From contig JASTWF010000339.1 in NCBI GenBank assembly GCA_030390025.1, positions 62,001-126,000 on the forward strand: a stretch of DNA of 64,000 nt, written 5' to 3'. Both the position numbers and the translations under genes were made by a program. The DNA comes from Squalus acanthias (taxonomy: Eukaryota). The notes below the pieces were generated by a model. It ran no database searches and was not told where the DNA came from. It worked only from the letters and a program-made list of their open reading frames with translations. Of this stretch, positions 704 through 44,865 are shown in pieces (position 1 is the first letter of the stretch; each line of letters begins with the position of its first letter).

Positions 704-784
704 TTTCAAATAAAACTGTGGGACTATAACCTGGTGTTGTGCGACTTCTCACAAAGTTTTATGTTCAACATCCACTGTCAGCCT

Positions 785-3700: not shown

Positions 3701-3945
3701 TGGGTCTGGAGTCACATATAGGCCAGACCGGGTAATAATGGCAGATTTCCTTCCCTAAAGGAAATTACAGCAATCCGGTAGTTTCATGGTCACCTTTACT
3801 GATACTAGCTTTCTATTCCAGATTTATTTAATTAACTGAATTGAAATCCCCCAGTTTCCGTGCTGAGATTTGAATATTCTCTGGATCATTAACCCAGGCC
3901 TCTGAATTACGAACCTAGTAACATTACCACTCCGCTACCGCTCCC
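785..3945 (-). mobile_element. Degenerate near-full-length non-LTR retrotransposon (CR1-group, here 'family B')
   Basis: Fragmented ORFs with APE-like (WMGDFKVHH) and RT motifs (GPDSIP, QSGFR, SAFDRVWH, MEYSPLDW); 3' tail cccatgaacgaat plus poly-A at about 785-810; homologous to 21885-25074. Confidence 0.85.
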
Positions 3946-3959
3946 GATCATTTATCCAG

Positions 3960-4250
3960 ACAGCGCTGTGCAGTGCTGAGCAAGTGCTGCATTGTAGGAG
4001 GTGCCTTTCATCGAATGAGGCCTCATGCTCTGCCACTTCCGGTGGTTCCGATGGACACCGAAGATCCCAGGTGACTATCAGAAGCAGAGCTCGGAGTTTT
4101 CACTGTGTCCTCGCAACATCCCCATCTCAAAGTCAGAAGCTCCAATTGTCCGTCCACCCCTAGTTGTTTGCGAATCTTTCGGCACAAGTTGACTTCCAAA
4201 AGTGAATAATTTTACAGTAATTCATCGGATGAGGGAGTTTTGGATCCTCC
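3960..4250 (+). mobile_element. Old Deu-SINE-like element
   Basis: tgcagtgctgag...gtgctgcattgtaggaggtgcc...aagatccca...gtgtcctcgcaacat resembles the Deu-SINE central domain (from recall); shared with the duplicate at about 21610-21870. Confidence 0.45.
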
Positions 4251-4448
4251 GCAGGTTCTCATCCTTTTTAAATGCACTTTTTCCTATTTTCTTGTTACTT
4301 TCCACTTTCATTGTCGGTTTCATATTTACCTTTCGAAAATATCTTCTCTACTGCTTTACTGATATGTTATTTCTTTGTCTATTTGATGTTCCCACGTTTG
4401 TTTGGAGGTATTTCCGATGCTCTCTTGTTCTCCAACAGAAGCAGGTGT

Positions 4449-6929
4449 CCAAACAGTAGTAGTGAGGTGGGGGAGGGTATGAAACAGGAAATCAGAGGTG
4501 CATGCAAAAAAGGCGCAGCAGTTATCATGGGTGACTTTAATATGCATATAGATTGGGCTACTCAAACTGGAAGCAATACGGTGGAGGAGGATTTCCTGGA
4601 GTGTTTAAGGGATGGTTTCCTAAACCAATATGTTGAGGAACCAACTAGAGGGGAGGCCATCCTGGACTGGGTGTTGTGTAATGAGGAAGGACTAATCAGC
4701 AATCTTGTGGTGCGAGGCCCCTTGGGGAAGAGTGACCATAGTATGGTGGAGTTCTACATTAGGATGGAGAAGGAAACAGTTAATTCAGAGACCATGGTCC
4801 AGAACTTAAATAAGGGCAACTTTGAGGGTATGAGGCGTGAATTGGCGAGGTTAGATTGGCAAGCGATATTTAAGGGGTTATCAGTGGAAGGGCAATGGCA
4901 GACATTTAGAGATCGCATGGATGAACTACAGCAATTGTACATCCCTGTCTGGCGTAAAAATAAAAAAGGGAAGGTGGCTCAACCATGGCTAACAAGGGAA
5001 ATCAGGGATAGTATTAAAAGCAAGGAAGTGGCATACAAATTGGCCAGAAGTAGCAGCAAACCCGGGGACAGGGAGAACTTTAAAACTCAGCAGAGGAGGA
5101 CGAAGGGTTTGATTAGGGCAGGGAAAATAAAATATGAAAGGAAGCTTGCGGAGAACATTAAAACAGACTGCAAAAGCTTCTATAAATATGTAAAAAGAAA
5201 GAGGTTAGTAAAAACAAACGTAGGTCCCCTGCAGTCAGAAACAGGGGAAGTCATAATGGGGAACAAAGAAATGGCTGATCAATTGAACAAGTACTTTGGT
5301 TCGGTGTTTACTGTGGAGGACACAAACAACCTTCCGGAAATAAAAGAGATCAAAGGATCTGGTAAGAGGGAGGAGCTGAGGGAAATCGTTATCAGTCGGG
5401 AAAAGGTGTTGGGGAAATTGATGGGACTGAAGGCTGATAAATCCCCAGGGCCTGATGGTCTGCATCCCAGAGTACTTAAGGAGGTGGCCTTGGAAATAGT
5501 GGATGCATTGACGATCATTTTCCAACATTCCTTAGACTCCGGATCAGTTCCGAAGGAGTGGAGGGTGGCTAATGTAACCCCTCTTTTTAAAAAAGGAGGG
5601 AGGGAGAAAGCAGGGAATTATAGACCGGTCAGCCTGACATCGGTGGTGGGTAAAATGATGGAATCAATTATTAAAGATGTCATAACAGACCATTTGGAAA
5701 GTGGCGACATGATAGGTCCAAGTCAGCATGGATTTGTGAAAGGGAAATCATGCTTGACAAATCTTCTGGAATTTTTTGAGGATGTTTCCAATAGGGTGGA
5801 CGGGGGGGAACCAGTAGATGTGTTGTATTTGGACTTTCAGAAGGCCTTCGACAAGGTCCCACACAAGAGATTGGTGTGCAAAGTTAAAGCACATGGGATT
5901 GGGGGTAATGTGTTGACGTGGATTGAGAACTGGTTGGCACACAGGAAACAAAGAGTAGGAGTAAATGGGTACTTTTCAGAATGGCAGGCAGTGACCAGCG
6001 GGGTACTGCAGGGTTCGGTGCTGGGGCCCCAGCTGTTTACATTATATATTAATGATTTGGACGAAGGGATTAATTGTAATATCTCCAAATTTGCGGATGA
6101 CACTAAATTGGGAGGCAGTGTGAACAATGAGGAGGATGCTAGGAGGCTACAGAGTGACTTGGACAGGTTGGGTGAATGGGCAAATGTATGGCAGATGAAG
6201 TACAATGTGGATAAATGTGAGGTTATCCACTTTGGTGGTAAAAATAGGGAGGCAGACTATTACCTGAATGGTGGCAGATTAGGGAAAGGGGAGGTCTAAC
6301 GAGACCTGGGCGTCATGGTACATCAGTCACTGAAGGTGGGAAGGCAAGTGCAGCAGGCAGTCAAGAAAGCAAATGGCATGATGGCCTTCATAGCAAGGGG
6401 ATTTGAGTACAGGAGTAGGGAGGTGATGCTACAGTTGTACAGGGCCTTGGTGAGGCCACACCTGGAGTATTGTGTGCAGTTTTGGTCTCCTAACTTGAGG
6501 AAGGACATTCTTGCTATTGAGGGAGTGCAACGAAGGTTCACTAGATTGATTCCTGGGATGTCCAGACTGACATATCAAGAAAGACTGGATCAACTGAACT
6601 TGTATCCTCTGGAGTTCAGAAGAATGAGGGGGGATCTTATAGAGACGTTTAAAATCCTGACTGGTTTAGACAAATTAGATGTGGGCAGAATGTTTCCAAT
6701 GTTAGGGAAAACTAAAACCAGGGGTCACAGTCTAAGGATAAAGGGGAAGCCATTTAAGACTGAGATGAGGAGGAATTTCTTCACCCAGAGAGTGGTGAAT
6801 CTGTGGAATTCTCTACCACAGAAGGTTGTTGAGGCCAGTTCGCTAAATATATTCAAAAGGGAGTTAGATATAATACTCACAACTAGGGGGATCAAGGGGT
6901 ATGGCGAGAAAGCAGGAATGGGGTACTGA
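4449..6929 (+). pseudogene. CR1 ORF2 (APE C-part + reverse transcriptase) with one in-frame stop
   Basis: MGDFN, SDH, KSPGPDG, YRPVSL, QHGF, DFQKAFD, QGSVLGP, KFADD motifs; ORFs 4272-6299 and 6315-6929 are in one frame, separated only by TAA at 6297-6299. Confidence 0.9.
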
Positions 6930-7030
6930 GGTAGCATGTTCAGCCATGAACGCATTAAATGGCGGTGCAGGCTCGAAGGACCGAATGGTCTACTCCTGCA
7001 CCTATTTTCTATGTTTCTATGTTTCTATGT
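4449..7030 (+). mobile_element. Young 5'-truncated CR1 LINE
   Basis: ORF2 from mid-endonuclease to the C-terminus, 3' UTR and (tttctatg)3 tail; absent from the paralogous intron, where gcaggtgcccacagc-gtaagcgatc is contiguous (about 21311-21335, - strand). Confidence 0.93.
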
Positions 7031-7139
7031 AAGCGATCCGTTTCCAACTCAGGATCACTTGTCAAAGCTGTAAATTTCACACTGAATCCTGTCAAACGGA
7101 TGATTTTGCTGGGATTCGGACCAGCAATATTCCTGTTCT

Positions 7140-7540
7140 CGCTCTCACACATATTCACTCTCTCTCCCTCTCTCTCACGCACATTCACTCTCTCTCCCTC
7201 TCTCTCACACACATTCACTCTCTCTCCCTCTCTCACACACATTCACTCTCTCTCCCTCTCTCTCACACACATTCACTCTCTCTCCCTCTCTCCCTCTCTC
7301 ACTCTCTACCTCTCTCTCACACACATTAACTCTCTCTCCCTCTCTCACGCACATTGACTCTCTCTCCCTCTCTCTCACACACATTAACTCTCTCCTTCTC
7401 TCTCACACACATTCACTCTCTCTCCCTCTCTCTCACACATTAACTCCCTCTCCCTCTCTCTCACACACATTCACTCTCTCTCCCTCTCTCACACACACAT
7501 TCACTCTCTCTCCCTCTCTCACATTCCCTCTCTCTCTCTG
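7140..7540 (+). repeat. About 30-bp CT-rich minisatellite (cacattcactctctctccctctctctcaca)n
   Basis: Directly visible; abuts the splice acceptor ttacag at 7541-7546. Confidence 0.9.
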
Positions 7541-7546
7541 TTACAG

Positions 7547-8457
7547 CTAACTTGGCAGTGATTGTGATCCTGTCCCGAGGAAGGTGCGGTCTCTCCAGAT
7601 GTGTCACTCGGTACCTGGTGTCCATGGCGGTGACGGATCTCCTGGTCATTATCACCGCTGTGATATTAAACCGGATTGCTGTTATTTATTTCCCATAAAG
7701 TTTCCTGTCCCTCACTCCGGTCTGTAGTCTCCGTTCTGCCCTAATCTATGCAGTCATAGACAGTTCTGTCTGGTTCACGGTCGCTTTCACCTTTGATCGA
7801 TTTGTGGCCAATCGTTGCCAGAAGCGGAAAACAAAATATTGCATCGGGAAAACGGTGGCGGGAGTTATAGGAAAGGTCTGTGCTCTGAGCTGCTTCAAAA
7901 ATACCTTCTTGTATTTTATATATGAACCTTTGTACACAATTAACAACATACCCTGGTTCTGCAGCATAAAATTAATATATTATACCTCACCTGCATGGAT
8001 CGTATTTGACTGGATTCACCACATTGTAACCCCGTGTCTCCAAATCATTCTGATTTTGCGGCTCAATGCTCTGACCGTCAGACACATTCTAGCGGCCAGT
8101 AGAGCCCGCAGGAGACTCCGAACCCACAGCAATGGGGATAATTAGAGTGACCCAGAGATGGAGAGCCGGAAAAGGTCCATCGTCTTACTCTTCTGTATCT
8201 CGGGCAATTTCAGCCTGTTACATGTGTTATTACTGAGAACTTTCCTCTATGTCCGGATTACGAACGTTACTTATAATAACTCAGGTTCCAATTTCAATGA
8301 ATCAACTTTTATTCTGGAGGAAAGCAGATATATGCTTCAGTTTTTGAGTTCCTGCATCAACCCGTTTATTTATGCAGGGACTCAGGGCAAATTCAGAGAG
8401 GAGTTAAAGAATGGGGTGAAATATCCTCTGAGTCTAATTGTTAAATCATTTAAATGA
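7547..8457 (+). pseudogene. GPR139-like class A GPCR, exon 2, pseudogene
   Basis: Acceptor AG 7545-7546, then NLAVIVILSRGRCG...FTFDRFVA...NPFIY; in-frame stops TAA 7696-7698 and TAG 8143-8145; exon 1 not in the window. Confidence 0.88.
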
Positions 8458-9429
8458 TGAAAATAGTAAAGTATAGCATGAATTGTACCTTATATTCCAT
8501 GCTGTGCTCTTCTTGTCCGTGTCAGACACGGCCTCCACTCCCAGATACACAGTCACTCACTCTAAGATCCTTACCCAATGTGAATTTAAGAATGTATGAG
8601 GAACACTGCATCAGCGCACAATTCAGTGTTGTAACCCGTTCTCAGTTAGTTTCCAGTTCTCTTGTCGGTGCTGACTCAGGCCTGGGACATTCCCACCAGC
8701 CACGAGGGCCCTGGAGTATCTTTACATTCATGGGGAGTCCGACCTCTGATCGGTGATTGGATATCAAGTTTAACTGTTTAATGAAGGGACCCAATGTCCC
8801 TCCTGGGAATGGTTTGCATCTTGAGGCTCGGATACGCTCTGAAATGGCAGCACGCGCTGTCCCCACGCATTGTTCTCCGCTCATTGGGCCCCGCCCCACA
8901 GCCGCACTCCTGTGTCCATAAACACAGGAACAGAGGAATTGCTGGAGGATAAAGACAAAGGACCATCCAGGTCACTTTCTGCTCTTTTCAATGTCCAATT
9001 GGGACGTCATCCCCAGTGTAATTAAACAAAATAAAATTAATCTAACGAACGTGCCCCCCTTTGTAAAGGGGCACAAACAATAATCAACAAAATCATACAA
9101 ATAGAAAACTTTGTAAATTAAATGAGAATATTATCTTCACTATCTTTTATACACTCAAGTCTAGTTCGCTTTTTACCATCCTGGTAGTCCCCCGATACAA
9201 TCATAATGGAGTTGTTGCCTAATCACAGAAATCAATCTCTGTCGAATAGTCTACAACAGACCCAGACATGAGGTGAGGAAAACCCCAGTGGTGGAGAGCT
9301 TCAGGAACCATAGGACCACAGTCACCTGTTCCTCCCGAGCACACTGCACTTACCACATGTCATGTCCCTAATTACTCACATACTGTGTCCCCAAGTGTTA
9401 TACTAGGAAGGATATCTATTTAATTTGCA

Positions 9430-14929: not shown

Positions 14930-15633
14930 CAGGTACTGCACGAGTTAGACACAGAGTAAAGCTTCCTCTACACTTTCCCAGCAAACACTCCCAGGGCAGG
15001 TACAGCACGGGTTAGATACAGAGTAAAGCTCGCTCTACACTGTCCCATCAAACACTCCCAGGGCAGGTACAGCACGGGTTAGACACAGAGTAAAGCTCCC
15101 TCTACACTGTCCCAGCAAACACTCCCAGGGCATGTATAGCACGGGTTAGATACAGAGTAAAGCTCCCTCTACACTGTCCCAGCAAACACTCGCGGGGCAG
15201 TTATAGCACGGGTTAGATACAGAGTAAAGCTCCCTCTATACTGTCCCATCAAAAACTCCCAGGGCAGGTACAGCACGGGTTAGATACAGAGTAAAGCTCC
15301 CTCTACACTGTCCCAGCAAACACTCCCGGGGCAGGTATAGCACGGGTTAGATACAGAGTAAAGGTCCCTCTGCACTGTGCCATCAAACACTCCCAGGGCA
15401 GGTACAGCAGAGGTTAGATACAGAGTAAAGCTCGCTCTACACTGTCCCATCAAACACTCCCAGGGCAGGTACAGCGTGGGTTAGATACAGAGTAAAGGTC
15501 CCTCTACACTGTCCCAGCAAACACTCCCGGGGCAGGTATAGCACGGGTTACATACAGAGTAAAGGTCCCTCTACACTGTCCCATCAAACAATCTCAGGGC
15601 AGGTACAACACGGGTATAGATACAGAGTAAAGC
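14930..15633 (-). repeat. 67-bp satellite, short array (about 10 copies)
   Basis: Unit gggcaggtacagcacgggttagatacagagtaaagctccctctacactgtcccatcaaacactccca, the reverse complement of the 53323-59760 unit. Confidence 0.95.
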
Positions 15634-16189: not shown

Positions 16190-16640
16190 AACCCCTAAAC
16201 CTAACACGCTAACCCCAACCACTGACCCCCAAACTGTAACCATAACCCCGTAACCCCATGCCTAACTCGAACACCCTAAGTATAACAACCTAACCCCAAC
16301 CCCTAACCCTCAAACTGTAACCCTAACCCGGTAACACCACCCCAACTCTAACATCCTAACCATAACACCCACACCCCAACCCCTAACTCCCAAACTGTAA
16401 CCCTAACCCGGTAACACCACCCCTAACTCTAACATCCTAAATATAACACCCAACCTCCAACCCCTAACCCCCAAACTGTAACCCTCACCCCGTAACCCCG
16501 CCCCTAACTCTAACATCCTAACCATAACACCCTAGCCCTAACCGCTAACCGAAACTCCGTAACCACACCCCTAACTGTAACATTCGAACCATAACACCCT
16601 AACCACTACCCTAACCTAAACCCTAACCGTAAACTATAAA
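16190..16640 (+). repeat. Degenerate telomere-like (CCCTAA) tract with about 80-bp periodicity
   Basis: Many ccctaac motifs; aaactgtaac recurs at 16231, 16312, 16392 and 16473. Confidence 0.8.
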
Positions 16641-18213: not shown

Positions 18214-19158
18214 TGCAAATTAAATAGATATCATTCGTATAACACTTGGGGACACAGCATGTGAGTAATTAGAGACATGACATGTTTTAATTGCAGCGTG
18301 CTCGGGAGGAACAGGTGACTGTGGTCCTATGGTTCCTAAAGCTCTCCACCACTGTGGTTTTCCTCACCTCATGTCTGGGTCTGTTGTAGATTAATCGATA
18401 GAGATTGATTGCGTGATTAGTCAACAACTCCATTATCATTGTATCCGGGGACTAACAGGATGGTAGAAATCGAACTAGACTTGAGTGTATAAAAGATAGT
18501 GAAGGTAATATTCTCATTTAATTTGATCAGTTTCGAATTTGTATGATTTTGTTGATTATTGTTTTGCCCCTTTACAAAGTTCGTTCGATTAATTTTCTTT
18601 TGTTTAATGACACTGGGATGACGTCCCAATTGGCCATTGAAAAGAGCAGAAAGTGACCTGGATGGTCGTTTATCTTTATCCTCCAGCAATTCCTCTGTTC
18701 CTGTGTCTATGGACATAGGAGTGCGGCTGTGGGGCGGTGAGCGGAGACCAATGCGTGGGGCCAGCGCGTGCTCCCATTTCAGAGCGTATCCGACCCTCAA
18801 GATCCAAACCATTCCCAGGAGGGAAATTGGGCCCTTCATTGAACAGTTAAACTTGATATCCAATCATAGATCAGAGGTCGGACTCCACATGAATGTAGAG
18901 ATACTCCAGGGCGCTCGGGGCTAGTGCGAATGTACCAGGCCTGAGTCAGAACGACAAGAGATCTGGAAACTAACTGAGAACGGGTTACAACACTGAATTG
19001 TGCGCTGATGCAGTTTCCCTCAAACATTCTTAATTTCACATTGGGTAAGGATCTTCGAGTAAGTGACTGTGTATCTGGGAGGGGGGCGTGTCTGACAGGG
19101 ACAAGAAGACACAACATGGAATATAAGGTACAATTCATAATATACTTTATTATTTTCA

Positions 19159-20066
19159 TCATTTAACTAATTTAACAATTAGACTCATTGGATATTTCAC
19201 CCCATTCTTTAACTCCTCTCTGAATTTACTCTGGGTCCCTGCATAAATAAACGGGTTGATGCAGGAACTCAAAAGCTGAAGGATAAATCCGCTTTCATTC
19301 AGAATAAAATTTGATTGATTGATATTTGTACCTGAAAAATAAGTAAGTTTCGCAATCCGGACATAGAGGAATCTTATAAGAAACAACAACCATAACAGGA
19401 TGAAAATGCCCGAGATACAGAAGAGTAAGAGGATGGACTTTCTCCGCTTCTCCATCTCTGGGTCAATCTGATTCTCTCCATTGCTGTGGGCCCGGAGTCT
19501 CCTGCGGGCTCTACTGGCCGCTAAAATGTGTCTGACGGTAAGAGCATTGAGCAGCAAAATCAGAATTAATGGGAGACACGGGGATAAAATGCGATTAATC
19601 CAGTCATATGCGATCCATGCTAGTGAGGTATAAAATGTTGATGTTATGCTGCAGAACCAGGGATTATTGTTAATTGTGTACAACGGTTCATATATAAAAT
19701 ATAAGAAGGTAGCTTTCAAACAGTTTAAGACACAGACCGTTCCTTTAACCACCGCCGCCGTTTTATCGGTGCAATATTTTATTTTCAGCTTCTGGCAACA
19801 AATGGCGACAAATCGATCAAAGGTGAAAGCGACCGTTACCCAGACAGAACTGTCGGTGACTGCATAGATTAGGGCAAAACGGAGACTACAGACCGGAGTG
19901 ATAGACAGGAAACTAAACGGGAAATAAATACCACCAATCCGGTTAAATATCACAGCGGTGATAATGACCAGAAGATCCGTCATCGCCATGGATACCAGGT
20001 ACAGAGTGATACATCTGGAGAGACCGCACCTTCCTCGGAACAGGATCACAATCACTGCCAAGTTAG
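19159..20066 (-). CDS. GPR139-like class A GPCR, coding exon 2 (intact)
   Basis: Uninterrupted ORF with 7TM features, DRF and NPFIY motifs; acceptor ttacAG at 20068-20067; joins exon 1 in phase 1 (G|CT = Ala) to give 325 aa. Confidence 0.9.
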
Positions 20067-20073
20067 CTGTAAC

Positions 20074-21210
20074 AGAGAGAGAGAGAGAGAGAGAAATTGA
20101 GAGAGTGACAGAGAGTGAATGTGTGTGAGAGAGAGGGAGAGAGAGTGAATGTGTGTGAGAGAGAGGGAGAGCGAGTGAATGAATGAGAGAGGGAGAGAGA
20201 GTGAATGTGTGTGAGAGAGAGGGAGAGAGAGTGAATGTGTGTGAGAGAGAGGGAGAGAGAGTGAATGAGTGTGTGAGAGAGGGAGAGCGAGTGAATGAGT
20301 GTTAGAGAGAGTGAATGAGTGTGAGAGAGGGGGAGAGTGAATGTGTGTGAGAGAGAGGGAGAGAGAGTGAATGAGTGTGTGAGAGAGGGAGAGCGAGTGA
20401 ATGAGTGTTAGAGAGAGGGAGAGAGAGTGAGTGAGTGTTAGAGAGAGGGAGAGCGAGTGAATGAGTGTTAGAGAGAGGGCCAGAGAGTGAATGAGTGTGT
20501 GAGAGAGGGAGAGCGAGTGAATGAGTGTTAGAGAGAGGGAGAGAGAGTGAATGAGTGTTAGACAGAGGGCCAGAGAGTGAATGAGTGTGAGAGAGGGAGA
20601 GCGAGTGAATGAGTGTTAGAGAGAGGGAGAGAGAGTGAATGAGTGTGTGAGTGAGAGAGAGAGTGAATGTGTGTGAGAGAGAGGGAAAGAGATTGAATAT
20701 GTGTGAGAGAGAGGGAGAGAGAGTGAATGTGTGTGAGAGAGGGAGAGAGTATTAATGTGTCTGTGAGAGAGTGAGAGAAAGTGAATGTGTGTGAGAGAGA
20801 GGGAGAGAGAGTTAATGTGTGTGAGAGTGAGGGAGAGAGTGTGAATGCGTGTGTGAGAGAGGGAAAGAGATTGAATATGTGTGAGAGAGAGGGAGAGAGA
20901 GTGAATGTGTGTGAGAGAGAGGGAGAGAGAGTTAATGTGTCTGAGAGAGAGGGAAAGAGATTGAATATGTGTGAGAGAGAGGGAAAGAGATTGAATATGT
21001 GTGAGAGAGAGTGAGAGAGAGTTAATGTGTGTGAGAGAGAGGGAGAGAGAGTGAATGTGTGTGAGAGAGAGTGAGAGAGAGTTAATGTGTGTGAGAGAGA
21101 GGGAGAGAGAGTTAATGTGTGTGAGAGAGAGTTAATGTGTGTGTGAGAGAGAGAGAGAGAGTTAATGTGTGTGAGAGAGAGTGAGAGAGAGTAAATGTGT
21201 GTAAGAGCGA
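20074..21210 (-). repeat. About 30-bp CT-rich minisatellite, expanded copy
   Basis: (gagagagggagagagagtgaatgtgtgtga)n on the + strand; paralogue of 7140-7540. Confidence 0.9.
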
Positions 21211-21609
21211 GAACAGGAAAATTACTGGTCCGACTCCCAGCAAGATCATCCATTTGACAAGATTCAGTGTGAAATTTACAGCTTTGACAAGTGATCCTGA
21301 GTTGAAAACAGATCGCTTACGCTGTGGGCACCTGCTTCTGTGTTTAAAATAATCCTCCAGATTAAAAATAAGACAGGTCAATGACATCGGAATGTAAAAT
21401 AATATAATGAATCCTGCAGGAGAACAAGAGAGCCTCGGAAAGACCTGGAAACGAAAGCCGGAACAACAAATAGAGAAAAAAATAACATATCATGACGCAT
21501 TAGAGAAGATATTTTGAGAGTAAATATGAAACCGACAAAGAAAGTGGAAAGTAACAAGAAAATAGGACACAATGCATTTAAAACGGATTATGTCCTGCGG
21601 ACGACCCAA

Positions 21610-21870
21610 AACGCCCTCATCCGATGAATTACTGTAAAATTATTCACTTATGGAAGTCAACTTGTGCCAAAAGATTCGCAAACAGCTTCTGTTCTTTGAG
21701 GAGGGGATGTTGCGAGGACACAGTGAAAACTCCGAGCTCTGCTTCTGATAGTCACCTGGGATCTTCGGTGTCCATCGTAACCACCGGAAGTGGCAGAGGA
21801 TGAGGCCTCATTCGGTGAAAGGCAGCTCCTGCAATGTAACACTTGCTCAGCACTGCACAGCGCTGTCTGG
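21610..21870 (-). mobile_element. Deu-SINE-like element (duplicate of 3960-4250)
   Basis: Reverse-complement match to 3960-4250. Confidence 0.45.
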
Positions 21871-21884
21871 ATAAATGATCCCGA

Positions 21885-24800
21885 ACAGTAAGTAGTGGGA
21901 ATGTTATGGGCTAATGATCCAGAGACGTGAGTTGAAAACCCACCACGACAGCTGGGGAATTTAAATTCAATTAATTACATAAATCTGGAATAGAATGCTA
22001 GTATCAGTAAAGGTGACCAAGTAACAGATTGTTGTAACAACACATCTGGCTCACGAATGTATTTTAGGGAAGGAAATCTGCCATTATTACCTGTGCTGGC
22101 CTATCTGTGACTCCAGACCCACAGCAATGTGGTTGTCTCGTAACTTCCCTCTGAAATGGCTGAGCAAGCCACTCAGTTGAAAAAAAAACACTGCGCAAAT
22201 TAATAAGAATAAAACCGGACGCACCACGCAGCATCGACCTCGGCATCGGCTACGGACACCCAGCCCAGCCCAGTCGACCCTACATATTCCTCCTCATCAA
22301 CATCTGGGGACTTGTGCCAAAATTGAGACAGCTGTCCCACAGACTAGTCAAGCAACAGCCTGACATCGTCATACTCACCGAATCATACCTTTCAGCCAAT
22401 ATCCCAAATTCCCCAATGCCCCAAACTCCTCCATCACAATCCCTGGGAATGTCCTGTCCCACCAGCAGGACAGACCCACCAGGGTGGCGGCACAGTGGTA
22501 TACAGTTGGTAAGGATCCCACAAGATTGAAATCGGACCCCAGGGAGTCACATGGATTCAGGTCAGGCATGGACAATGAAACCTCCTTCAGATTACCACTT
22601 ATCACCCTCCCTCAGCTGATGAATCAGCACTCCTCCATGTTGAACAACACTTGGAAGAAGCTCTGAGAGTAGCAAGGGCACAGAATGTACTCTGGGTGGG
22701 GGACTTCAAACTCCATCACCAGGAGTGGCTCGGTAGCACCACTACATGAAGAATATAACTGCCAGTCTGGACTGCGACAGGTGGTGGGAGAACCAACACG
22801 AGAGAAAAACCTACTTGACCTCATCCTCACCAATCTACCTGTCGCAGATGCATCTGTCCATGAAAGCATTGGTAGCAGTGGTCACCGCACAGTCATTGTG
22901 GAGACGAAGTCCCGTCTTCACACTGAGGACACCCTCCATCGTGTTGTGTGGCATTATCACCGTGCTAAATGGAATAGATTCAGAACAGATCTAGCAGCTC
23001 AAAACTGGGCATCCATGAGGCGCTGTGGGCCATCAGCAGCAGCAGAATTGTATTCCACCTCAATCTGTAACCCCATGGCCCGGCATGTCCCTCAATCTAC
23101 CATTACCATCAAGCCAGGGGACCAACCCTGGTTTAATAAGGAGTGTAGAAGAGCATGCCAGGGGCAGCACCAGGCGTACCTAAAATGCGGTGCCAAGCTG
23201 GGGAAGCTGAAACACAGGACTACATGCATGCTAAAAAGCGGAAGCAGCATGCTATAGACAGAGCTAATGATCCCACAATCAACGGATCAGATCAAAGCTC
23301 TGCAGTCCTGCGACATCCAGTCTTGAATGGTGGTGGACTATTAAACAACTAAAGGGAGGAGGCGGCTCCATGAATATCCCCATTCTCAATGATGGTAGAG
23401 CCCAGCACGTGAGTGCAAAAGACAAAGCTGAAGCATTTGCAACCATCTTCAGCCAGAAGCGCCGAGTAGATTATCTATATCGGCCTCCTCCTGAGGTCCC
23501 CACCACCACAGAAGCAATTCTTCAGCCAATTCACTCCGCGTGATATCAAGAAACGGCTGAGCGCGGTGGATACATCAAAGGCTGTGGGTCCCGACAACAT
23601 CCCGGCTATCGTGCTGAAGACTTGTGCTCCAGAACTAGCCGCGCCTTTAGCGAAGCTGTTCCAGTACAGCTACAACACTGACATCTATCCGATAATGTGG
23701 AAAACTGCCCAGGTATGTCCTGTCCACAAAAAGCAGGATAAATCCAATCCGGCCAATTACTGCCCCATCAGTCTACGCTAAATCATCAGCAAAGTGATGG
23801 AAGGTGTCATCGACAGTGCTATCAAGCAGCACTTACTCACCAATAACTTGCTCACTGATGCCCATTTTGGGTTCCGCAAAGACTACTCGGCTCCCGACCT
23901 CATTACTGCCTTGGTCCAAACATGGACAAAGGAGCTGAATTCCAGAGGTGAGATGAGAGTGACTGCCCTTGACATCAAGGCAGCATTTGACCGAGTGTGG
24001 CACCAAGGAGCCCTAGTAAAACTTAAGTCAATGGGAATCAGGGGGAAGACTCTCCATTGGCTGGAGTCACTCCTAGCACAAAGGAAGATGGTTGTGGTAG
24101 TTGGAGGTCAATCATCACAGCCCAAGCATATCGCTGCAGGAGTTCCTCAGGGCAGTGTCGCAGGCCCAACCATCTTCAGCTGCTTCATCAATGACCTTCC
24201 CTCCAACATAAGGTCAGAAATGGGGATGTTCGCTGATGACTGCACAGTGTTCAGCGCCATTCACAACTCCTCAGACAATGAAGAAGTCCATGCCCACATG
24301 CAGCAAGACCTGGACGACGTTCAGGCTTGAGCTGATAAGTGGCAGGTAACATTCGCGCTACACAAGTGCCAGGCAATGATTATCTCCAACAATCGAGTGT
24401 CTAACCAACTCCCCTTGACATTCAACGGCAATACCATCGGGGAATCCACCACCATCAATATCCTGGGGGTGACCATTGACCAGAAACTTAACTGGACCGG
24501 CCAGAGAAATACTGTGGTAACAAGAGCAGGTCAGAGGTTGGTATTCTGCGGCGAGTGTCTCACCTCCTGATTCCCCAAAGACTTTCCATCATCTACAAGG
24601 CACAAGTCAGCAGTGTGATGGAATATTCGCCACTTGCCTGGATGAGTGCAGCTACAAAAACAGTCAAGAAGCTCGACACCATCCAAGACAAAGCAGCCTG
24701 CTTGATCCACCACATTAAACATTCATTCCCTCCCCCACCAGCGTAATGAGGCTTCTTTGGCAGCATCTCCGAAACCCGCGAACACTATCACCTAGAAGCA

Positions 24801-25074
24801 CAAGGGCAGCAGGGGCTTGGGAACACCACCACCTCCAAGGTCACCTCCAAGTCACACACCATCGTGACTTGGAAATATATCGCCGTTCCTTCATCGTCGC
24901 TGGGTCAAAATCCTGGAACTCCCTCCCGAACAGCACTGTGGGAGTACCATCACAACACGACTGCAGTGGTTCAAGAAGGCGGCTCACCACCACCTTCTCA
25001 AGGGCAACTAGGGATAGGCAATAAATGCTGGCCTTGCCAGTGACGCCCACATCCCATGAACGAATAAAAAAAAA
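21885..25074 (+). mobile_element. Family B non-LTR retrotransposon, near full length, degenerate
   Basis: PDIVILTESYL, LDLILTN, GPDNIP, DIKAAFDRVWH, GVPQGS, MFADD motifs; tail cccatgaacgaat(a)n; lies in the GPCR intron. Confidence 0.88.
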
Positions 25075-25159
25075 GTTTTAGAGTGGATATTGAACTTAAA
25101 CCTTTGTGACTCAGTTATGCAGCCTCACTCAATGATTGAAGACGGGAACTCCCGGGCTC

Positions 25160-28100
25160 AGCAGCGGTCAAATGCTCTTGTAATACAAGCCAACATACCA
25201 TTTGCTTTCCTAATTGCTTGCTGTACCTGCATGTTAACTTTCAGCGATTGGTGTACAAGAACACCCAGGTCCCTCTGAACACCAACATTTCCCAATCTTT
25301 CACCATTTAAAAAATGCTCTGCTTTTCTATTTTTCATACCAAAGTGGATAACTTCACGTTTCTCCACATTATATTCCATTTCCCATGTTCGTGCCCTTTC
25401 ACTTAGCCTGTCTATATCCTGCTTAAGCGTCTTTGCATCCTCCTCACATTCCCACCCAGCTTTGTATCATCGGGAAACTTGAATATATTAAATTTGATCC
25501 CCTCAACCAAATAATTGATGTAGATTTGGAAAAGCTGAGGCCAAAGCACTAGTTACAGTGGTCTGCCAACCTGAAAATGAACCGTTCATTCCTACTCTCT
25601 ATTTTCTGTCCGTTAACCAATCCACAATCCATGCTGATATATTACCCCCAATCCCGTGAGCCCTAATTTTGTTTAATAACCTCTTGTGTGGCACCTTATC
25701 GAATGCCTTCTGAAAATCCAAATCCATCATATCCACTGGTTGTCCTGTATCTATTCTACTCGTTACAACCTCAAAAAACAGATTTGTCAAACACGATTTC
25801 CCTATAATAAATCCGTGTTGAATCTATCATAAATCGTATTATTATTCTCTAATTGCCCTGTTACCACGTCCTTAATAATATATTCTAGCATTTCCCCTAC
25901 TACTGATGTCAGGCTAACTGATCTATAGTTCCCCGTTTTCTCTCTCCATCCTTTCTTAAATAGTGTGGTTCCATTTATACCTTCCAATCCACGGGAACCG
26001 TTCTAGAATCTATGGAATTTTGGAAAATGACAACCAATGCATCCACTATCTCTATAGCCACCTATTTTAGAACCCGAGGATGTAGGCCATCAGACCCTTG
26101 TTACATGCATCCTCTAATTTCCTGATTTATACTCTGCCCTACATTACAACTACTGTTTGGGGGCCTATAAACAGCTCCCACCAATGTTTTCTGCCACATG
26201 CTGTTTCTTAGCTCCGCCCAAAGAGGGCGGTCGAAGCATAGTTTTTGAATATTTGTTAGGCAGAGATAGATAGATTCTTGATCAGCAAGGGGGTGAAAGG
26301 TTATCGGGGGTAGACGGAAATGCGGAGTAATCAGATCAGCCATGATCTTATTGAATCTCGGAGCAGGGTCGACGGACCGAGTGGCCTACTCCTGCTCCTA
26401 ATTCGTATGTTCGTCTATTCGTAAAACTATCTTGCATACATTCCATGAATTCGTCCTCCACACTATTAATGCAAATTTGGTTTATAATGCTTTCTGCCCC
26501 TTGCTGTTTCTGAGCTCCACCCAAACTGATTCTACGTCTTGATTTTCGGAGCTCAGATCCTTTCTCTCTACTGTCTTCATCCCATCCTTTATTATCAGGG
26601 CTACCCTTCCTCATTTTCCACTTTGCCGATCTCTGCTAAATGTTAAGTACCCTGCAATATTTCGTTGCCAACCTTGGCCACTTTGCAACCACCTCTCCGT
26701 TATGGCTAATAGATCAAACTGGTTAAATTATTTTTGCGCTATTTTGTTGCGAATGCGTCGAGCATTCAGATAAAGTGCCTTTAACTTTGACTTATTTCTA
26801 TTTTTCCCTGAGCTCACCTTAGACACTGATGCCTTATTACCTTTGTTGCTCTCTCTTTCCCTTCCTGACCCACGCTGCTTATTTTTACCCAAAACTCTAC
26901 TCTGCTCTAGATCCTTGACATTTCTCTCACTGCTTTTAAACTTAATCTTTCCTGAATCCTACCACCCCCACCCTTTCATTAGTTTAAAGCCCTGTTTACT
27001 GCCCTAGTTATTCTGTTCACCAGGACATTGGTCCCAGCCTGGTTTTAGTGGAACCCGTCCCAGCGGAACAGCGCCCTCTTTCCCCAGTACTGGTGCCAGT
27101 GCCCCATGAATTGAAACCCCTTCTTTGAGCCACTCATTTAAACCTCGAATCTGTTTTTCCCTAAGCCAATTTGCGCGTGGCTCAGGTAACCATCCAGAGA
27201 TTATTAGCTTTGAGGTGCTGCTTTTTAATTTGAATTCTAGCTCCATAAACTGCCTTGGCAGGACTCCCTCATTACTTGTTCTACCTATGTCGTTGGATCC
27301 TACGTGGACCAGGACAACTGGATCCTCCCCCAACTACTCCAAGTTCTACCTATGTCGTTGGTTCCTACGTGGAGCACGACAACTGGATCCTCCCCCTCCT
27401 ACTCCAAGTTATTCTCCAGCCGCGAGGAGATGTCTTTACCCTGGCACCGGGCAGGCAACACAACCTTCGGTACTCTCGGTTGTGGCTGCAGAGAACAGTA
27501 TATATCCCCCTGACTATACTGTCCCCTACCACAACTACATTCACTATTACTCCCTCCACTTGAATGGCCTCCTTCATCATGGTGCCATGGTCATCTTGCT
27601 CCTCCATCATTCAGGCTTTTCCCTCGTCCACACAGGCAGCAAGGACCCCATATCTGTTGGACAAGGGCTAAGGCTGAGGCTCCTCCAGCACTGCATCTGA
27701 GGTCCCCTTACCTGCCTGAGTTTCAGTCACACCCTCCTGTCCCTGACCACTAACCAGACCTGTACCACTACCTAACCTAAGGGGTGTGACTGCCTCCTGG
27801 ATCATAGTGTCCAGATAACTCTCCCCATCCCTGATGTCCCGCAATGTCTGCACCTCAGACTCCAGCTGAAGAACTCTGAGCTGAAGTTCCTGGAGATGCA
27901 GGCACTTACTGCAAACGTGATTGTCCAGGTCCACAATGCTCTCCACAAACTACCACATGATGCAGTTGTGGCACACCACCTGCACTACCATCCCTATATG
28001 ACATTGTTTTATTTAATTAAATGTAATTACATTTGTATTTAGGTAACTTAGATTACAGTGTAATTTCTTGACCACGTACTTGGTCTAGATTAAGTTAAGG

Positions 28101-28600
28101 GAACTGCCATTAAATATCTACCTGTAACACAAATCACTACAAGTAGTGTAGGCAAAAAGCAACACCTCCTTCCCGCTCTTCTCCAATTTCCCACTCTTTC
28201 CATATTCACTCAATTTACAAGTGATTGCTCGGCTCCCCTGCTCCTGGTCATTAGCGCCTATTCAAGACAAACACTTAAAGCTGACTGACAGTTAACTGCC
28301 ACTGGCAACAGCTTCTGTTAACAACAGTTTTTAAAGTTATAAGTTAAAATCTAAATCTCAAACTAAATTTCACTTTTTACAGCTTCTATTTATCAAATAC
28401 TTACCAGATATTCCCACTCATTCCAAATTCCCAAATAAAAACTCTGTCCAAGTCCACTCCGTTTGATCCCGCTCTGTGCAGACCGCTCTGTGCTCTGCAG
28501 AAATGTTTACTTTTATACACTTGGAGCATCACCCAATTTACAAGTGATGTCTCAGCACCCCTGCTCCTGGTGATTGTTGCCTATTCAAGACAGCAGCAGA
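25160..28600 (-). mobile_element. CR1 LINE with ORF1 (zinc finger, leucine zipper, SGNH esterase) and partly deleted ORF2
   Basis: CSKCLHLQELQLRVLQLESEV, VVVGDSIVRG, VHVGSND; ORF2 remnants VYRPPNS and DFQKAFDKVPH; internal tandem duplication of about 65 bp at about 27278-27408. Confidence 0.85.
26220..26423 (+). mobile_element. Short CR1 3'-end insertion nested in CR1
   Basis: gatcagccatgatcttattgaat...ggcctactcctgctcctaattcgtatgttcgt tail, opposite to the host element. Confidence 0.75.
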
Positions 28601-28689
28601 TTGTGGAAGAGGGAACCAAGCTGAACCAGTGAGAGTCAGAGACTGAGACCAGAAAACTGCGCTGTGGGAGCTTGGGGAAAATACAGACA

Positions 28690-29172
28690 CAACAGAACTA
28701 AATGTGCACAGTGATAACAGTGTGATAATTCACCCACAGTGACAGTGTCAATAACACAATCGAACTACGTGTACACAGTGATAAAAGTGTGATAATTCAG
28801 CCACAGTGACAGTGTCAATAACACAATAGAACTCCATGTACACAGTGATAACAGTGTGATAATTCACCCATAATGACAGTGTCAGTAACACAATAGAACT
28901 CCATGTACACAGTGATAACAATGTGATAATTCACCCACAGTGACAGTGTCAATAATGCAATAGAGCTCCATGTACACAGTGATAAAAGTCTAATAATTCA
29001 CCCACAGTAACAGTGTCAATAACACAATAGAACTCCATGTACACAGTGATAACACTGTGATAATTCTCCCACAGTGACAGTGTCAGTAACACGATAGAAC
29101 CCCACGTGAACAGTGATAACAGTGTGATAATTCACCCACAGTTAAATACCAATAATACAATAGAAAGTATAT
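28690..29172 (+). repeat. 67-bp AT-rich minisatellite (variant L)
   Basis: Unit cacaatagaactccatgtacacagtgataacagtgtgataattcacccacagtgacagtgtcaataa; unrelated to the large 67-bp satellite. Confidence 0.9.
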
Positions 29173-29985
29173 GCTCACCATTATCATAGCGCTGATACAG
29201 CTCTTACCAAAATCACAAATTTCATCCGAAACTATCCCTCTCATCCTTCTCGAAATGCCTGCAGCCTTTGACACGGTTGACCACACCATCCTCCCCCATC
29301 TCCTCTCCTCCGTCATCCAGCTGGGTGCAACGACCCTGGAAGCCAGAGAATCGCCTGCAATGGCTTCTCTTCCCACTCCCGCACCATTACCTCTTGAATC
29401 CCTGATGGATCTATCCTTGGCCCCTCCTATTTCTCATCTACATGCGGCCCCTCAGCGATATCATCGGAAAACACAGCGTCAGGTTCCACATCTACGCTGA
29501 CGTCACCCAGCTCGACCTCACCATGACCTCTCCATTGTCTCTGGTTTGTCACACTGCTTGTCCTACCTCCATTACTGAATGAGCAGAAAGTTCCTCCAAC
29601 TAAATATTGGGTAGACCGAAGCCATTGTATTCGGTCCCTCCACAAACTCCATTTGCGAGCAAACTCCATCCCTCTCGCTGGGAATAGTCTGAAGCTAAAC
29701 CGAACAGTTCGCAACCTTGGCGTCCTATTTCACCAAAATCGAGTTTCCAACCACATATTCGCTCCGTCACCAAGTCCGTCTACTTCCACCTCCGTAACAT
29801 AACCGTCTCCACCCCTGCCTCTGCTCATAATTTGTTGAAACCCTCATCCATGCATTTGTTATTTCTAGAGTTGACTATTCCAATGCTCTCCTGGCCGGCC
29901 TCCCAACTTCCACCCTCCATAAACTTGAGCTCATCCAATTCTCTGCTGCCCTGTGTCCTAACTCGCACCAAGTCCCGTTCACCCC
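29173..29985 (+). mobile_element. L2-clade LINE RT fragment
   Basis: LILLEMPAAFDTVDHTIL (cf. L2 LLDLSAAFDTVDH), HIYADVTQL, SRVDYSNALL, TRTKSRSP. Confidence 0.8.
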
Positions 29986-30590
29986 ATCACAGTGAAATAC
30001 GAATAACACAATAGGAAATATATGTACACAGTTATAATAGTGATGATAATACCACTCACAGTGAAATACCAATAACAGAATAGGAAATATATGTACACAG
30101 TTATAATAGGGTGATAATACCAGTCACAGTGAAACACTAATAACACAAGAGGAAATATATGCACACAGTTATAATAGTGTGATAATACAACTCCGTGAAA
30201 TACCAATAACACAACAGGAAATATATGCACACAGTTATAATAGTGTGATAATGCCACTCACAGTGAAATACCAATAACACAATAGGAAATATATGTCCAC
30301 AGTTATAATAGTGTGATACCACTCACAGTGAAATACCAATAACACAATAGGAAATATATGTCCACAGTTATAATAGTGTGATACCACTAACAGTGAAATA
30401 CCAATAACACAATAGGAAATATATGTCCACAGTTATAATAGTGTGATACCACTCACAGTGAAATACCAATAACACAATAGGAAATATATGTCCACAGTTA
30501 TAATAGTGTGATACCACTCACAGTGAAATACCAATAACACAATAGGAAATATATGTCCACAGTTATAATAGTGTGATACCACTCACAGTG
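29986..30590 (+). repeat. 65/68-bp AT-rich minisatellite (variant R)
   Basis: Unit cacagtgaaataccaataacacaataggaaatatatgtccacagttataatagtgtgataccact; related to 28690-29172. Confidence 0.9.
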
Positions 30591-30948
30591 CAGCGACATC
30601 TACTGTTGAATTTCAATAAAACATCACTCGGATTAAATAGACTGGTACCGCTGAAGAGGTGGCTCTGTGGAAAACACATTCAAACAAATATTGCAGGACC
30701 AGGCACTCAAGTTAGGCAGTGATTCCGTTAAAGGGGAGAAATTATGTTGAGAAAGAGAAGAAATGATTGCGGTAAAGGGGGAGGAATTATACCGTCAAAG
30801 GGGGGAAATGCTTCTGTAAAAGTGATAAAATATACCGTGAAACGGCTGAAATTGCACAGTTGAAGGGGAGAAGCGTTCCCTGTAAATAGGTGCAGTGATA
30901 CAGTTAACCAATGATTCCCATAACTAGTAACTAACTCCAATACTTTAC

Positions 30949-31018
30949 CTGGAACGCCGATAGCTGCAATGACGGGATAGTAAATGGCAAACACCAGACC
31001 TTTTGGTATCCCGTGCAT
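30949..31018 (-). CDS. GPR139-like GPCR, coding exon 1
   Basis: ATG at 31018, MHGIPKGLVFAIYYPVIAAIGVP, then CAG|GTAAAG donor; 70 nt, phase 1, compatible with exon 2 at 20066; YY...GxP|AN matches the GPR139 TM1 pattern. Confidence 0.82.
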
Positions 31019-31069
31019 TTCTCTCAGAAGCTCTGAGCGCGCTCTGCACCACACTCACAGATTGTCACA

Positions 31070-31075
31070 TTTATA
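31070..31075 (-). promoter_or_regulatory. Candidate TATA box of the GPCR gene
   Basis: TATAAA on the minus strand about 52 bp upstream of the ATG. Confidence 0.5.
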
Positions 31076-31569
31076 CCTGATGTCAGGCTCCAGGGAGATA
31101 ATCAGATGGCTTGATCTTTTATATTAGTTACACTAATTGAAACAAACAGATTAGTGCAGCCGCTGCCAGGATGGTGTTTATGATTTGATGGAATGGAAAG
31201 TATTTAAATAACTCTGACCCGGCTCTGAAGTGAAATACCCAGAGATTACAGTATGATCCCGGGTAGATTCCTTCAGAAAATATAATAAAATCGTGAATAA
31301 GTGGTTGCGAAGGTGAAAGTGTGCCTTCTACGGGATGAATTCACAGGTCTAAACCCCTTAATGCTCAGTGAGGAGGTCTCAGCACACTCTATAATTGACC
31401 AGAGAAACTCTGGTCCTGCAGCCGGAAAACTCGGACAAGTTCTCGCTCCTGGTCATTATCCAGCTCCATCCGGGTAAGCACGGGTCACGTGTAGCTGCGT
31501 CCAACTCCCTCTGAAAGTGTGCATCCACTTTAACCAACTGTCTGTGTTTTTATTTGGACAGCTTCAGTA

Positions 31570-32830
31570 CAGAACGGTTTCAATCAGTGTGGACAGCTCG
31601 AGTTCAGCACAGTTACATTCCATGTGGACAGGTCCAGTTAGCACAGTTACATTCAGTGTGGAGAGTTCCAGTTCAGCACAGTTAGATTCAGTGTGGAGAG
31701 ATCCAGTTCAGCACAGTTACATTCAGTGTGGACAGGTCCAGTTCAGCATAGTTATATTCAGTGTGGACAGGTCCAGTTCAGCACAGTTACATTCAGTGTG
31801 GAGAGGTCCAGTTCAGCACAGTTACATTCAGTGTGGACAGGTCCAGTTCAGCACAGTTACATTCAGTGTGGACAGGTCCAGTTCAGCCCAGTTACATTCA
31901 GTGTGGAGAGATCCAGTTCAGCACAGTTACATTCAGTGTGGAGAGGTCCAGTTCAGCACAGTTACATTCAGTGTATACAGGTCCAGTTCAGCACAGTTAC
32001 ATTCAGTGTGGACAGGTCCAGTTCAGCACGGTTGCATTCAGTGTGGACAGGTCCAGTTCAGCACGCTTACACTGAGTGTGGACAGGTCCAGTTCAGCACA
32101 GTTACATTCAGTGTGGACATTTCCAGTTCAGCACCGTTACACTGAGTGTGGACATGTCCAGTTCAGCACAGTTACATTCAGTGTGGACAGGTCCAGTTCA
32201 GCACTCTTACATTCAGTGTGGACAGGTCCAGTTCAGCACGGTTACATTTAGTGTGGACAGGTCCAGTTCAACACATTTATATTCAGCGTGGGCAGGTCCT
32301 GTTCAACACAGTTATATTCAGTGTGGACAGGTCAATTACAGCACAGTTACATTCGGTGTGGACAGGTCAGTTTCAACATAGTTACATTCAGTGTGGACAG
32401 GTCCAGTTCAGCAATGTTATGTTCAGTGTGGACAAGTCCAGGTCAGCACGTTTGCATTAATTGTGGACATGTCCAGTTCAGCACGCTTACATTCATTGAG
32501 GACAGGACCAATTCAGCACAGTTACATTCAGTGTGGACAAGTCTAGTTCAGCGCAGTTACATTCAGTGTGTACAGGATCAGTTCAGCACAGTTACATTCA
32601 GTGTGGACAGTTCCAGTTCAGAAGAGTTACATTCAGTGTGGACAGGTCCAGTTCAGCACGGTTACATTCAGTGTGGACATGTCCAGTTCAGCACATTTAC
32701 ATTCAGTGTGGACAGGTCCAGTTCAGCACAATTATATTCATTGTGGACATGTCCAGTTCGGCGCAATTACATTCAGTGTGGACAGGTCCAGTTCAAAATA
32801 GTTACATTCAGTATAGGTCAGTTCAGCGTG
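31570..32830 (+). repeat. 35-bp minisatellite (about 35 copies)
   Basis: Unit gtgtggacaggtccagttcagcacagttacattca. Confidence 0.95.
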
Positions 32831-43966: not shown

Positions 43967-44865
43967 TTATTTAATTAAATTACCTATTAGTTTGAGCGGA
44001 TATTGCACCATATTCTTTAACTCTTCCCTAAATTTGCTCTGTGTCACTGCATAAATAAATGTGTTTGTGCAGCAACTCAACAGCTGAAGCATTTGCACTT
44101 TCTCGGAGAATAAATTTGGGGTCACTGAAACCGTTGATTTTATAATCATTTGTAAATCGTTCATATAAGAATTGTACAACATACGTCATCCACAACAGGA
44201 TGAAACTGCCCGAGATGGTGAAGAGTAAAACGATGGACTTTTTCCGGCTCTCCATCTCTGGGTCACTCTGATTCTCGCCATTGCCGTGGGCCCGGAGTCT
44301 CCTGCGGGCTCTACTGGCCGCTAGAATGTATCTGACGGTCAGAGCATTGAGCAGCAAAATCAGAATGAATGGGAGACACGGGGTTAAAATGCGGTCACTC
44401 CATTGGAAAGCTTCCCGTACGGGTGAAGTATTATGGAGTTCCTTCAGTCTGCAATACCACGGGACATTGTTAATTATGATAATGGGTTCATGTATAAAGT
44501 ACCAGGGGATATCGATTAAACATCCCAGGGCACAGATCGTTCCTATTACAATGGCAGCCGTTCTCTTGGTGCAATATTTTGTTTTCAGCTTCTGGCAACA
44601 AATGGCCACAAATCGATCGAAGGTGAAAGCGACCGTTAACCAGACAGAACTGTCTCTGGCTGCATAGATTAACGTAATGCTGAGACTACATACGGGCGTG
44701 ATGGACAGGAAGCTACCTGGAAAATAAATAGCAGGAATCCGGTTTAATATCACAGCGTGATAATGACCAGGAGATCCGTCACCGCCATGGACACCAGGTA
44801 CCGAGTGATACATCTGGAGAGACCGCACCTTCCTCGGGACAGGATCACAATCGCCACTAAATTAA
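43967..44865 (-). pseudogene. GPR139-like GPCR exon 2, frameshifted pseudogene
   Basis: Acceptor ttacAG 44867-44866; NLVAIVILSRGRCG, FTFDRFVAICC, NTFIY; frameshifts near 44757 (1-nt loss in ACC GCT) and near 44095. Confidence 0.87.

Follow-up and report, generated by a model that had tools for sequence, protein, structure and literature searches.

A candidate ligand-diversified family of GPR139-related receptors in cartilaginous fishes, viewed from a gene cluster of Squalus acanthias

Introduction

A stretch of 64,000 nucleotides from the genome of Squalus acanthias (GenBank assembly GCA_030390025.1, contig JASTWF010000339.1, positions 62,001 to 126,000 of the forward strand; hereafter "the window") carries three related copies of a seven-transmembrane receptor gene that we call A, B and C. 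The relatives of these genes are public as automatic RefSeq models under the NCBI label "probable GPR139". This raises the question of whether intact copy B is the shark counterpart of a single conserved brain receptor or one member of a multigene family whose proteins have diversified to bind different ligands and, if so, which kind of ligands these might be. An original prediction made from the letters of the window favored the second possibility and suggested a chemosensory role, with the response of mammalian GPR139 and GPR142 to aromatic amino acids as an analogy. The answer matters for our picture of shark receptors, because the literature credits sharks with few OR, TAAR and V1R genes, a V2R set of modest size (PMC10116579) and comparatively few receptors of the G protein-coupled type (GPCRs; PMC8455134).

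Results

Copy B is an intact two-exon class A receptor gene

On the minus strand, copy B consists of two exons that together encode an intact class A GPCR of 325 amino acids (Table 1). As predicted, its coding sequence of 978 nt (70 nt from exon 1 and 908 nt from exon 2) is free of internal stops and is interrupted by a repeat-filled intron of ca. 10.9 kb, the acceptor of which is the sole AG within the final 134 nt of the intron. Homology rather than RNA supports this splice, since annotated shark proteins share the start and the junction region: 77 of the 120 homologues listed by our search are 320 to 330 amino acids long, and 76 of these 77 display both an MH start and read-through of the junction region. 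The expected near-absence of an N-terminal ectodomain was also borne out, with only 24 residues ahead of N1.50.

The class A (rhodopsin-like) assignment is clear from exon 2 alone, which scores 78.2 bits against Pfam 7tm_1 (curated cut-off 30.5), and from the presence of N25 (N1.50), D54 (D2.50), the DRF motif at 107-109, P189 (P5.50) and NPFIY at 294-298. Hydropathy at a threshold of 1.6 picked up only some helices and was replaced by a structural model of the stand-in protein P0001 (80% identical to copy B; built on 72 sequences, mean pLDDT 72.5), which has seven long helices and helix 8. Every match of a fold search with this model is a class A GPCR, though such a search is unable to tell class A receptors apart. 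Membership in the OR, TAAR, V1R or T2R families was rejected, as only 7tm_1 was found at E<=0.1 in Pfam and no such receptor came near the top of the profile or fold searches.

Copy B looks like a constrained, working member of its family, given the ratio of silent to replacement changes on its branch (7 vs 11, compared with 3 vs 17 on the branch of pseudogene A; small numbers) and an ordinary count of departures at conserved sites (6, with a family median of 5.5 and as many in 38 of 76 members). One of its residues is peculiar: position 131 (19744-19746, minus strand) is a lysine in the middle of transmembrane helix (TM) 4, where more than 90% of the family have isoleucine; either a genuine variant or an error in sequencing may account for this.

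The gene belongs to a large family of cartilaginous fishes

An E-value of 0.001 or less was reached by 2401 of the 6948 candidates in our homologue search, and the 120 best, the only ones for which the species is known, are all shark proteins with 57-82% identity. Heterodontus francisci, the horn shark, contributes 83 of these 120, each of them a distinct 90% cluster and together spread over five chromosomes. When 50% representatives were searched with a profile, 133 proteins reached E<=1e-30; the best 150 matches and look-ups of 30 proteins added skates, rays and Callorhinchus and then, more remotely, salamander, coelacanth, teleosts, a caecilian and amphioxus. With a large clustered repertoire and two of three window copies broken, the genomic traits typical of chemoreceptor families are thus present.

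The sister gene outside cartilaginous fishes looks different. A search with the salamander protein gave 25 matches among 1675 candidates, comprising 20 amphibian proteins (one per species), one from a sturgeon and four from chondrichthyans; no amniote or teleost match appeared among these candidates, though the search was word-seeded and does not prove absence. In an IQ-TREE phylogeny of 54 proteins hand-picked from ca. 320, all 34 chondrichthyan rows form one clade (support 95/84), and the amphibian-sturgeon gene is its sister group (100/99). Outside this pair fall further orphan receptors of bony vertebrates and amphioxus, and the family joins them against three invertebrate outgroups (100/99); a quick earlier tree had the same shape. 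True GPR139 and GPR142 were left out of the tree because no search returned them, including an amphioxus-seeded search aimed at both that gave 10 matches out of 8000 scored candidates with neither receptor among them.

The amphibian-sturgeon gene (e.g., XP_031757816.1 of Xenopus tropicalis and XP_069092602.1 of Pleurodeles waltl) is only ca. 30% identical to the copy B protein but shares with the shark family a short N-terminus, the cysteine pair described below, N5.58 and a DPE motif in the third intracellular loop. It differs in having one match per species and a near-invariant ligand pocket, and it retains F3.33, W6.48, a basic residue at 6.51, P6.50 and N7.39. The short N-terminus is not diagnostic of a chemoreceptor, because this single-copy gene has it as well; the trait is ancestral. 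The amphibian and sturgeon proteins (P0216 and P0301-P0320) are also of interest in themselves as an orphan GPCR whose near-invariant pocket keeps several GPR139 ligand residues.

The predicted ligand pocket varies among shark paralogues but hardly among amphibian orthologues

Evidence regarding ligand diversification comes from a comparison of the 77 shark paralogues (copy B and 76 of the 120 listed matches with 320-330 amino acids and an MH start) with 22 amphibian orthologues as a control. The two sets are similarly diverged overall, with 73% and 76% identity, respectively. Pairwise differences of the shark paralogues nevertheless amount to 0.437 at 31 predicted pocket sites and 0.227 at the 166 remaining helix sites, whereas the amphibian orthologues differ by 0.014 at pocket sites vs 0.200 elsewhere in the helices (permutation p 5e-5, also when compared to outer-half sites only). 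The loops flip in the same manner, as extracellular loops (ECLs) are more variable than intracellular loops (ICLs) in sharks (0.33 vs 0.21) but less variable in amphibians (0.18 vs 0.35). The near-invariance of the pocket sites in amphibians at the same time validates their assignment.

Entropy across 72 sequences follows the same gradient from pocket positions (1.28) via outer non-pocket sites (0.90; p 0.008 for the difference to the pocket) to the inner helix positions (0.53), and most positions on the G-protein side do not vary, with eight of them (3.49, 3.50, 3.54, 5.58, 5.61, 5.65, 6.36 and 6.37) invariant in all 72. The horn shark alone shows a pocket difference of 0.418 vs 0.200, with 48 distinct pockets in 49 proteins compared to 4 in the 22 amphibian proteins. 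Among 28 cross-species pairs of nearest shark proteins, the five closest retain their pocket (0.03-0.10 vs 0.11-0.13), while more distant pairs mostly do not. In odorant receptors, contact sites are known to be kept among orthologues while paralogues vary at them, a pattern that has served to define odorant-binding sites (PMC4598832).

Ligand diversification of the shark family is thus well supported by these comparisons, and we hold with good confidence that it constitutes a ligand-diversified repertoire of some kind, a statement that covers readings with external or luminal, immune and endogenous ligands together. The prediction of an expanded and diversified repertoire therefore gains from the family size and the pocket test a firmer footing than the three window copies allow. 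The shark family resembles the OR, TAAR, V1R and T2R families in its clusters, pseudogenes, lineage-specific copies, short N-terminus and orthologue-conserved but paralogue-variable pocket; it differs in its ancestry (only 7tm_1) and in having an intron within the coding region.

Divergence within the cluster and a possible contribution of gene conversion

The original prediction had itself been built on the contrast between intracellular and extracellular parts of the three copies. Residues of the inner half indeed differ less (29/154 between B and A, 31/155 between B and C) than those of the outer half (42/145 and 62/141; p 0.04 and 1e-5), and the three ECL2 sequences that had been quoted are exact, but the description of the intracellular parts as nearly invariant was overstated: copy B reads ILFRG and not ILSRG, and in ICL2 it is identical to copy A at only 7 of 13 residues. 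Ka/Ks of these three DNA copies did not show positive selection, with values ranging from 0.43 to 0.84.

Positive selection cannot be read from the inside/outside contrast by itself, because Ka/Ks is below 1 and about equal inside (0.43) and outside (0.50). Four-fold degenerate sites of C compared to B or A also differ more in the outer than in the inner half (13/30 vs 9/54 between B and C; p 0.01), a split that is not seen between B and A, and partial gene conversion may contribute to it. Copies A and B are 93% identical in their 3' flanks (8458-9429 and 18214-19158) compared to 88% in exons and ca. 82% in introns, which could reflect a conserved 3' untranslated region or a conversion tract, and the identity mosaic along A and B is suggestive of gene conversion or of unevenly distributed constraint. 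We did not use the greater divergence of the exon compared to the 3' flank as evidence, because divergence at four-fold sites (12/97) is above that of the flank too, and that of the intron is greater still.

These observations suggest an alternative in which the family is for the most part a side effect of duplications driven by repeats and of gene conversion, with a pocket that varies by relaxed constraint after loss of the ancestral ligand and not through the gain of new ones. Apart from the low and even Ka/Ks, the uneven silent divergence along the gene and the excess likeness of the A-B flanks, this idea can draw on the two broken copies and on the repeat arrays that surround the cluster. 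We nevertheless consider it unlikely, since pocket sites are about twice as variable as other helix sites and exceed even the outer non-pocket sites, close cross-species pairs retain their pocket, and scores of full-length open frames persist in sharks, rays and the chimaera. Nor did any recombination signal emerge when 49 horn-shark proteins were put through a PHI-like test, albeit a weak one.

Kinship with GPR139 is distant and its ligands probably do not carry over

How close the family is to GPR139 depends on the search. With exon 2 as a single sequence against the PDB, human GPR139 appears at E 0.0012 and rank 16, and designed repeat proteins are on top by chance. With a profile of the shark family it comes first among solved receptors, though marginally (55.5 bits vs 54.7 for TRHR), and it is second in the fold search with ca. 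22% identity. The relatives rank GPR139 first by wide margins over the next best receptor (53 vs 40 bits for salamander, 70 vs 44 for coelacanth, 80 vs 54 for amphioxus, and 160 vs 98 for a profile of bony-vertebrate and amphioxus relatives). On the basis of this transitive evidence, we assign the family to a wider GPR139-related group to which its kinship would be distant only, so that "GPR139-like" is acceptable in this broad sense but copy B is not GPR139 itself.

With GPR139 (PDB 7vug, 9m42), the best solved relative, and GPR142 the family shares the class A fold and alignable motifs in TM1 and TM7. Human GPR139, too, has two exons, with its intron falling in TM1. By contrast, Cys 3.25 and the ECL2 cysteine are invariant in the shark family while GPR139 lacks a cysteine at 3.25 in the alignment, Pro 6.50 is mostly lost in the shark family unlike in GPR139, and GPR139 is one conserved receptor of the brain as opposed to a multigene family with fast turnover.

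The agonist-binding residues of GPR139 are E108, F109, H187, W241, R244 and N271 (PMC7318219). They align to I90, Y91, N181, W249, F252 and F284 of copy B (generic positions 3.32, 3.33, 5.43, 6.48, 6.51 and 7.38, the last elsewhere numbered 7.39), so that one of six is kept. The basic residue at 6.51 and Asn 7.39, conserved from GPR139 to amphibians, are lost in nearly all shark copies, and copy B has phenylalanine at both. The analogy to aromatic amino acids therefore fails to carry over, and the ligand of copy B is likely not free Trp or Phe.

That copy B is instead a shark orthologue or recent duplicate of GPR139 or GPR142 that senses L-Trp or L-Phe is very improbable. Such a view has the NCBI name and the first and second ranks in the profile and fold searches on its side, but it clashes with the low identity, the poor single-sequence match, the loss of ligand residues and the existence of closer relatives in amphibians, sturgeon, coelacanth and teleosts. 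Some of these relatives may correspond to GPR210A/B, the GPR139/GPR142-type orphans of coelacanth, gar and other fishes that were so named in a survey by Rinne et al. 2019, which sampled no shark and reported no expansion (PMC6504862). The coelacanth and teleost proteins P0224, P0233 and P0254 are candidates for GPR210.

The ancestry of the GPR139 group among peptide receptors offers a further explanation, namely that the paralogues read a varied array of peptides or metabolites made by the animal itself, in neuroendocrine, reproductive or sperm signaling. The profile matches that follow GPR139 are receptors for TRH, PrRP, CCK and neuromedin U, the look-alikes in terms of features include FMRFamide-receptor-like clusters, and the family invariably has the cysteine pair of TM3 and ECL2 that is found in peptide receptors. 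However, we know of no matching expansion of ligands, fast lineage-specific turnover with pseudogenes is unusual for hormone receptors, and it is rather the amphibian orthologue that illustrates the pattern of a one-ligand receptor, which makes this explanation quite improbable.

What the repertoire may sense

Our leading though tentative reading is that the copies form an array of sensors for external or gut-lumen chemicals, and among the possible sites of a sensory role, chemosensory cells of the nose, taste buds, skin or gut appear most likely to us. In cartilaginous fishes, a GPR139-related ancestor that was likely a single gene would have given rise to many copies, with tandem and inverted duplication of cassettes feeding a birth-and-death turnover. 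New copies would alter pocket residues in TM3, TM5, TM6 and TM7 and hence the ligand, so that different ligands are predicted for each paralogue. The conserved cytoplasmic face would keep one shared signaling route. This could be Gq/11 or Gi/o, both of which are plausible because GPR139 couples mainly to Gq/11 (PMC7318219) and catshark nasal neurons carry Go alongside TRPC2 (PMC10116579). That these genes amount to an unrecognized chondrichthyan chemosensory family of hundreds of members, recruited from an orphan receptor related to GPR139 that amphibians and sturgeon kept as one copy, is a bolder claim that we regard as possible but rather doubtful.

Several points weigh against the chemosensory interpretation. 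Diversification of the pocket would fit immune or endogenous-ligand receptors as well; pocket sites come from generic numbering rather than a structure with bound ligand; the shark set leans toward the nearest matches of copy B and toward one species; and the features of Ka/Ks, four-fold sites and possible conversion described above leave the inside/outside split of the window copies with other explanations. At the level of RNA, the exon junction of copy B is not among the 15 joints listed (2903 more are unlisted) for four runs aligned to 19100-31500 at 80% likeness, an alignment that was swamped by repeats. In addition, the available text on a catshark brain and olfactory library has no GPCR among its 50 most specific genes (PMC11979771), though this result is weak because single receptors are sparse.

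The main competitor is an array of innate-immune sensors on leukocytes or barrier epithelia that detect microbial or parasite products, comparable to the expansions of formyl-peptide and Mas-related receptors in rodents. Its sequence signature would be identical to that of external chemosensors, sharks are described as lacking MAS1-type receptors so that this niche is open (PMC8455134), and catshark nasal neurons are reported to rely mainly on V2R/OlfC receptors (PMC10116579). Within the window, however, no immune gene is found beside the cluster, the neighbors being retroelements and a broken zinc-finger array, and we consider this alternative a serious one but on balance doubtful.

Organization of the cluster and its surroundings

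The coordinates of the three copies are summarized in Table 1. As predicted, two of them are pseudogenes, and for A and C only exon 2 is present, since no exon 1 of either was found within the window including 19 kb upstream of C. Around the start of copy B, positions 30989-31468 are covered by contigs from another organism's run at ca. 85% identity.

Table 1. Features of the receptor cluster; positions count from the first letter of the window.
Feature	Position	Strand	Remarks
Copy A intron	749..7546	+	homologous to intron of B (749-4433, 82%; 7029-7539, 86%) with inserted long interspersed nuclear element (LINE); exon 1 would fall left of window
Copy A exon 2, pseudogene	7547..8457	+	stops at 7696-7698 and 8143-8145 (codons 74 and 223); inverted duplicate of B, 87.8% identical
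AATAAA, candidate polyadenylation signal	19146..19151	-	immediately past stop of copy B
Copy B exon 2	19159..20066	-	end of TM1 through helix 8 and stop codon; open; Pfam 7tm_1
Copy B intron	20067..30948	-	10,882 nt, GT-AG, phase 1; packed with LINE fragments and simple/tandem repeats
Copy B exon 1, coding part	30949..31018	-	ATG, short N-terminus, most of TM1; phase-1 GT donor at end; N-terminus agrees with annotated shark proteins
Two TATAAA boxes, candidate core promoter	31070..31123	-	57 and 105 nt upstream of ATG of copy B
35-bp tandem array	31555..32812	.	36 copies; directly upstream of candidate promoter of copy B
Copy C exon 2, more distant pseudogene	43967..44865	-	frame broken by deletions of 1 nt (near 44757) and 2 nt (near 44094); ECL3 shortened in frame by 6 nt

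The window is otherwise rich in repeats and mobile elements. A young LINE in the intron of pseudogene A (4272-6929, plus strand) encodes an endonuclease and a reverse transcriptase in frames of 675 and 209 amino acids with one stop between them. Copies A and B are separated by a degenerate telomere-like array rich in TAACCC (16194-16632) and by an inverted block of ten copies (14930-15633) of a 67-bp satellite, of which ca. 96 copies occupy 6.4 kb at 53323-59760. Also to the right of the cluster lie a C2H2 zinc-finger array with a period of 84 bp (52498-52930, plus strand; ca. 5 fingers and an in-frame stop, likely a pseudogene fragment) and the pol region of a retroelement of the long terminal repeat type (59689-63040, minus strand), the broken frames of which encode a protease, reverse transcriptase, RNase H-like domain, second RNase H and integrase zinc domain.

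Discussion

We found no description of this family in the literature on shark GPR139, elasmobranch GPCR expansion, GPR210 or shark receptor repertoires, a body of work in which few subscription papers were covered and some supplements may list the family. A Squalomix preprint on tandem genes (bioRxiv 10.1101/2025.06.08.657570) names SUCNR1, V2R, Pcdh and others but, in its available text, not these receptors. Twelve supplementary files of another study, which filtered out families with more than 100 copies, contain no match (PMC12361510; one file unread). What our analysis adds are the single-copy sister gene of amphibians and sturgeon and the test of pocket variation in orthologues vs paralogues.

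A family with pocket evolution like that of odorant receptors could thus have been hidden by the automatic "GPR139" label and missed by surveys of only the four known families. Where it is expressed is directly testable with public shark tissue RNA, and the near-invariant amphibian orthologue is a good target for deorphanization that offers a tractable handle on the ancestral ligand in Xenopus. A large family with diversified pockets would alter the picture of shark receptors whether it serves smell, taste, the gut or immunity and, if it were truly a chemosensory family of hundreds of genes, it would outnumber the known smell receptors of sharks and overturn the view that these animals depend on a small set of V2Rs.

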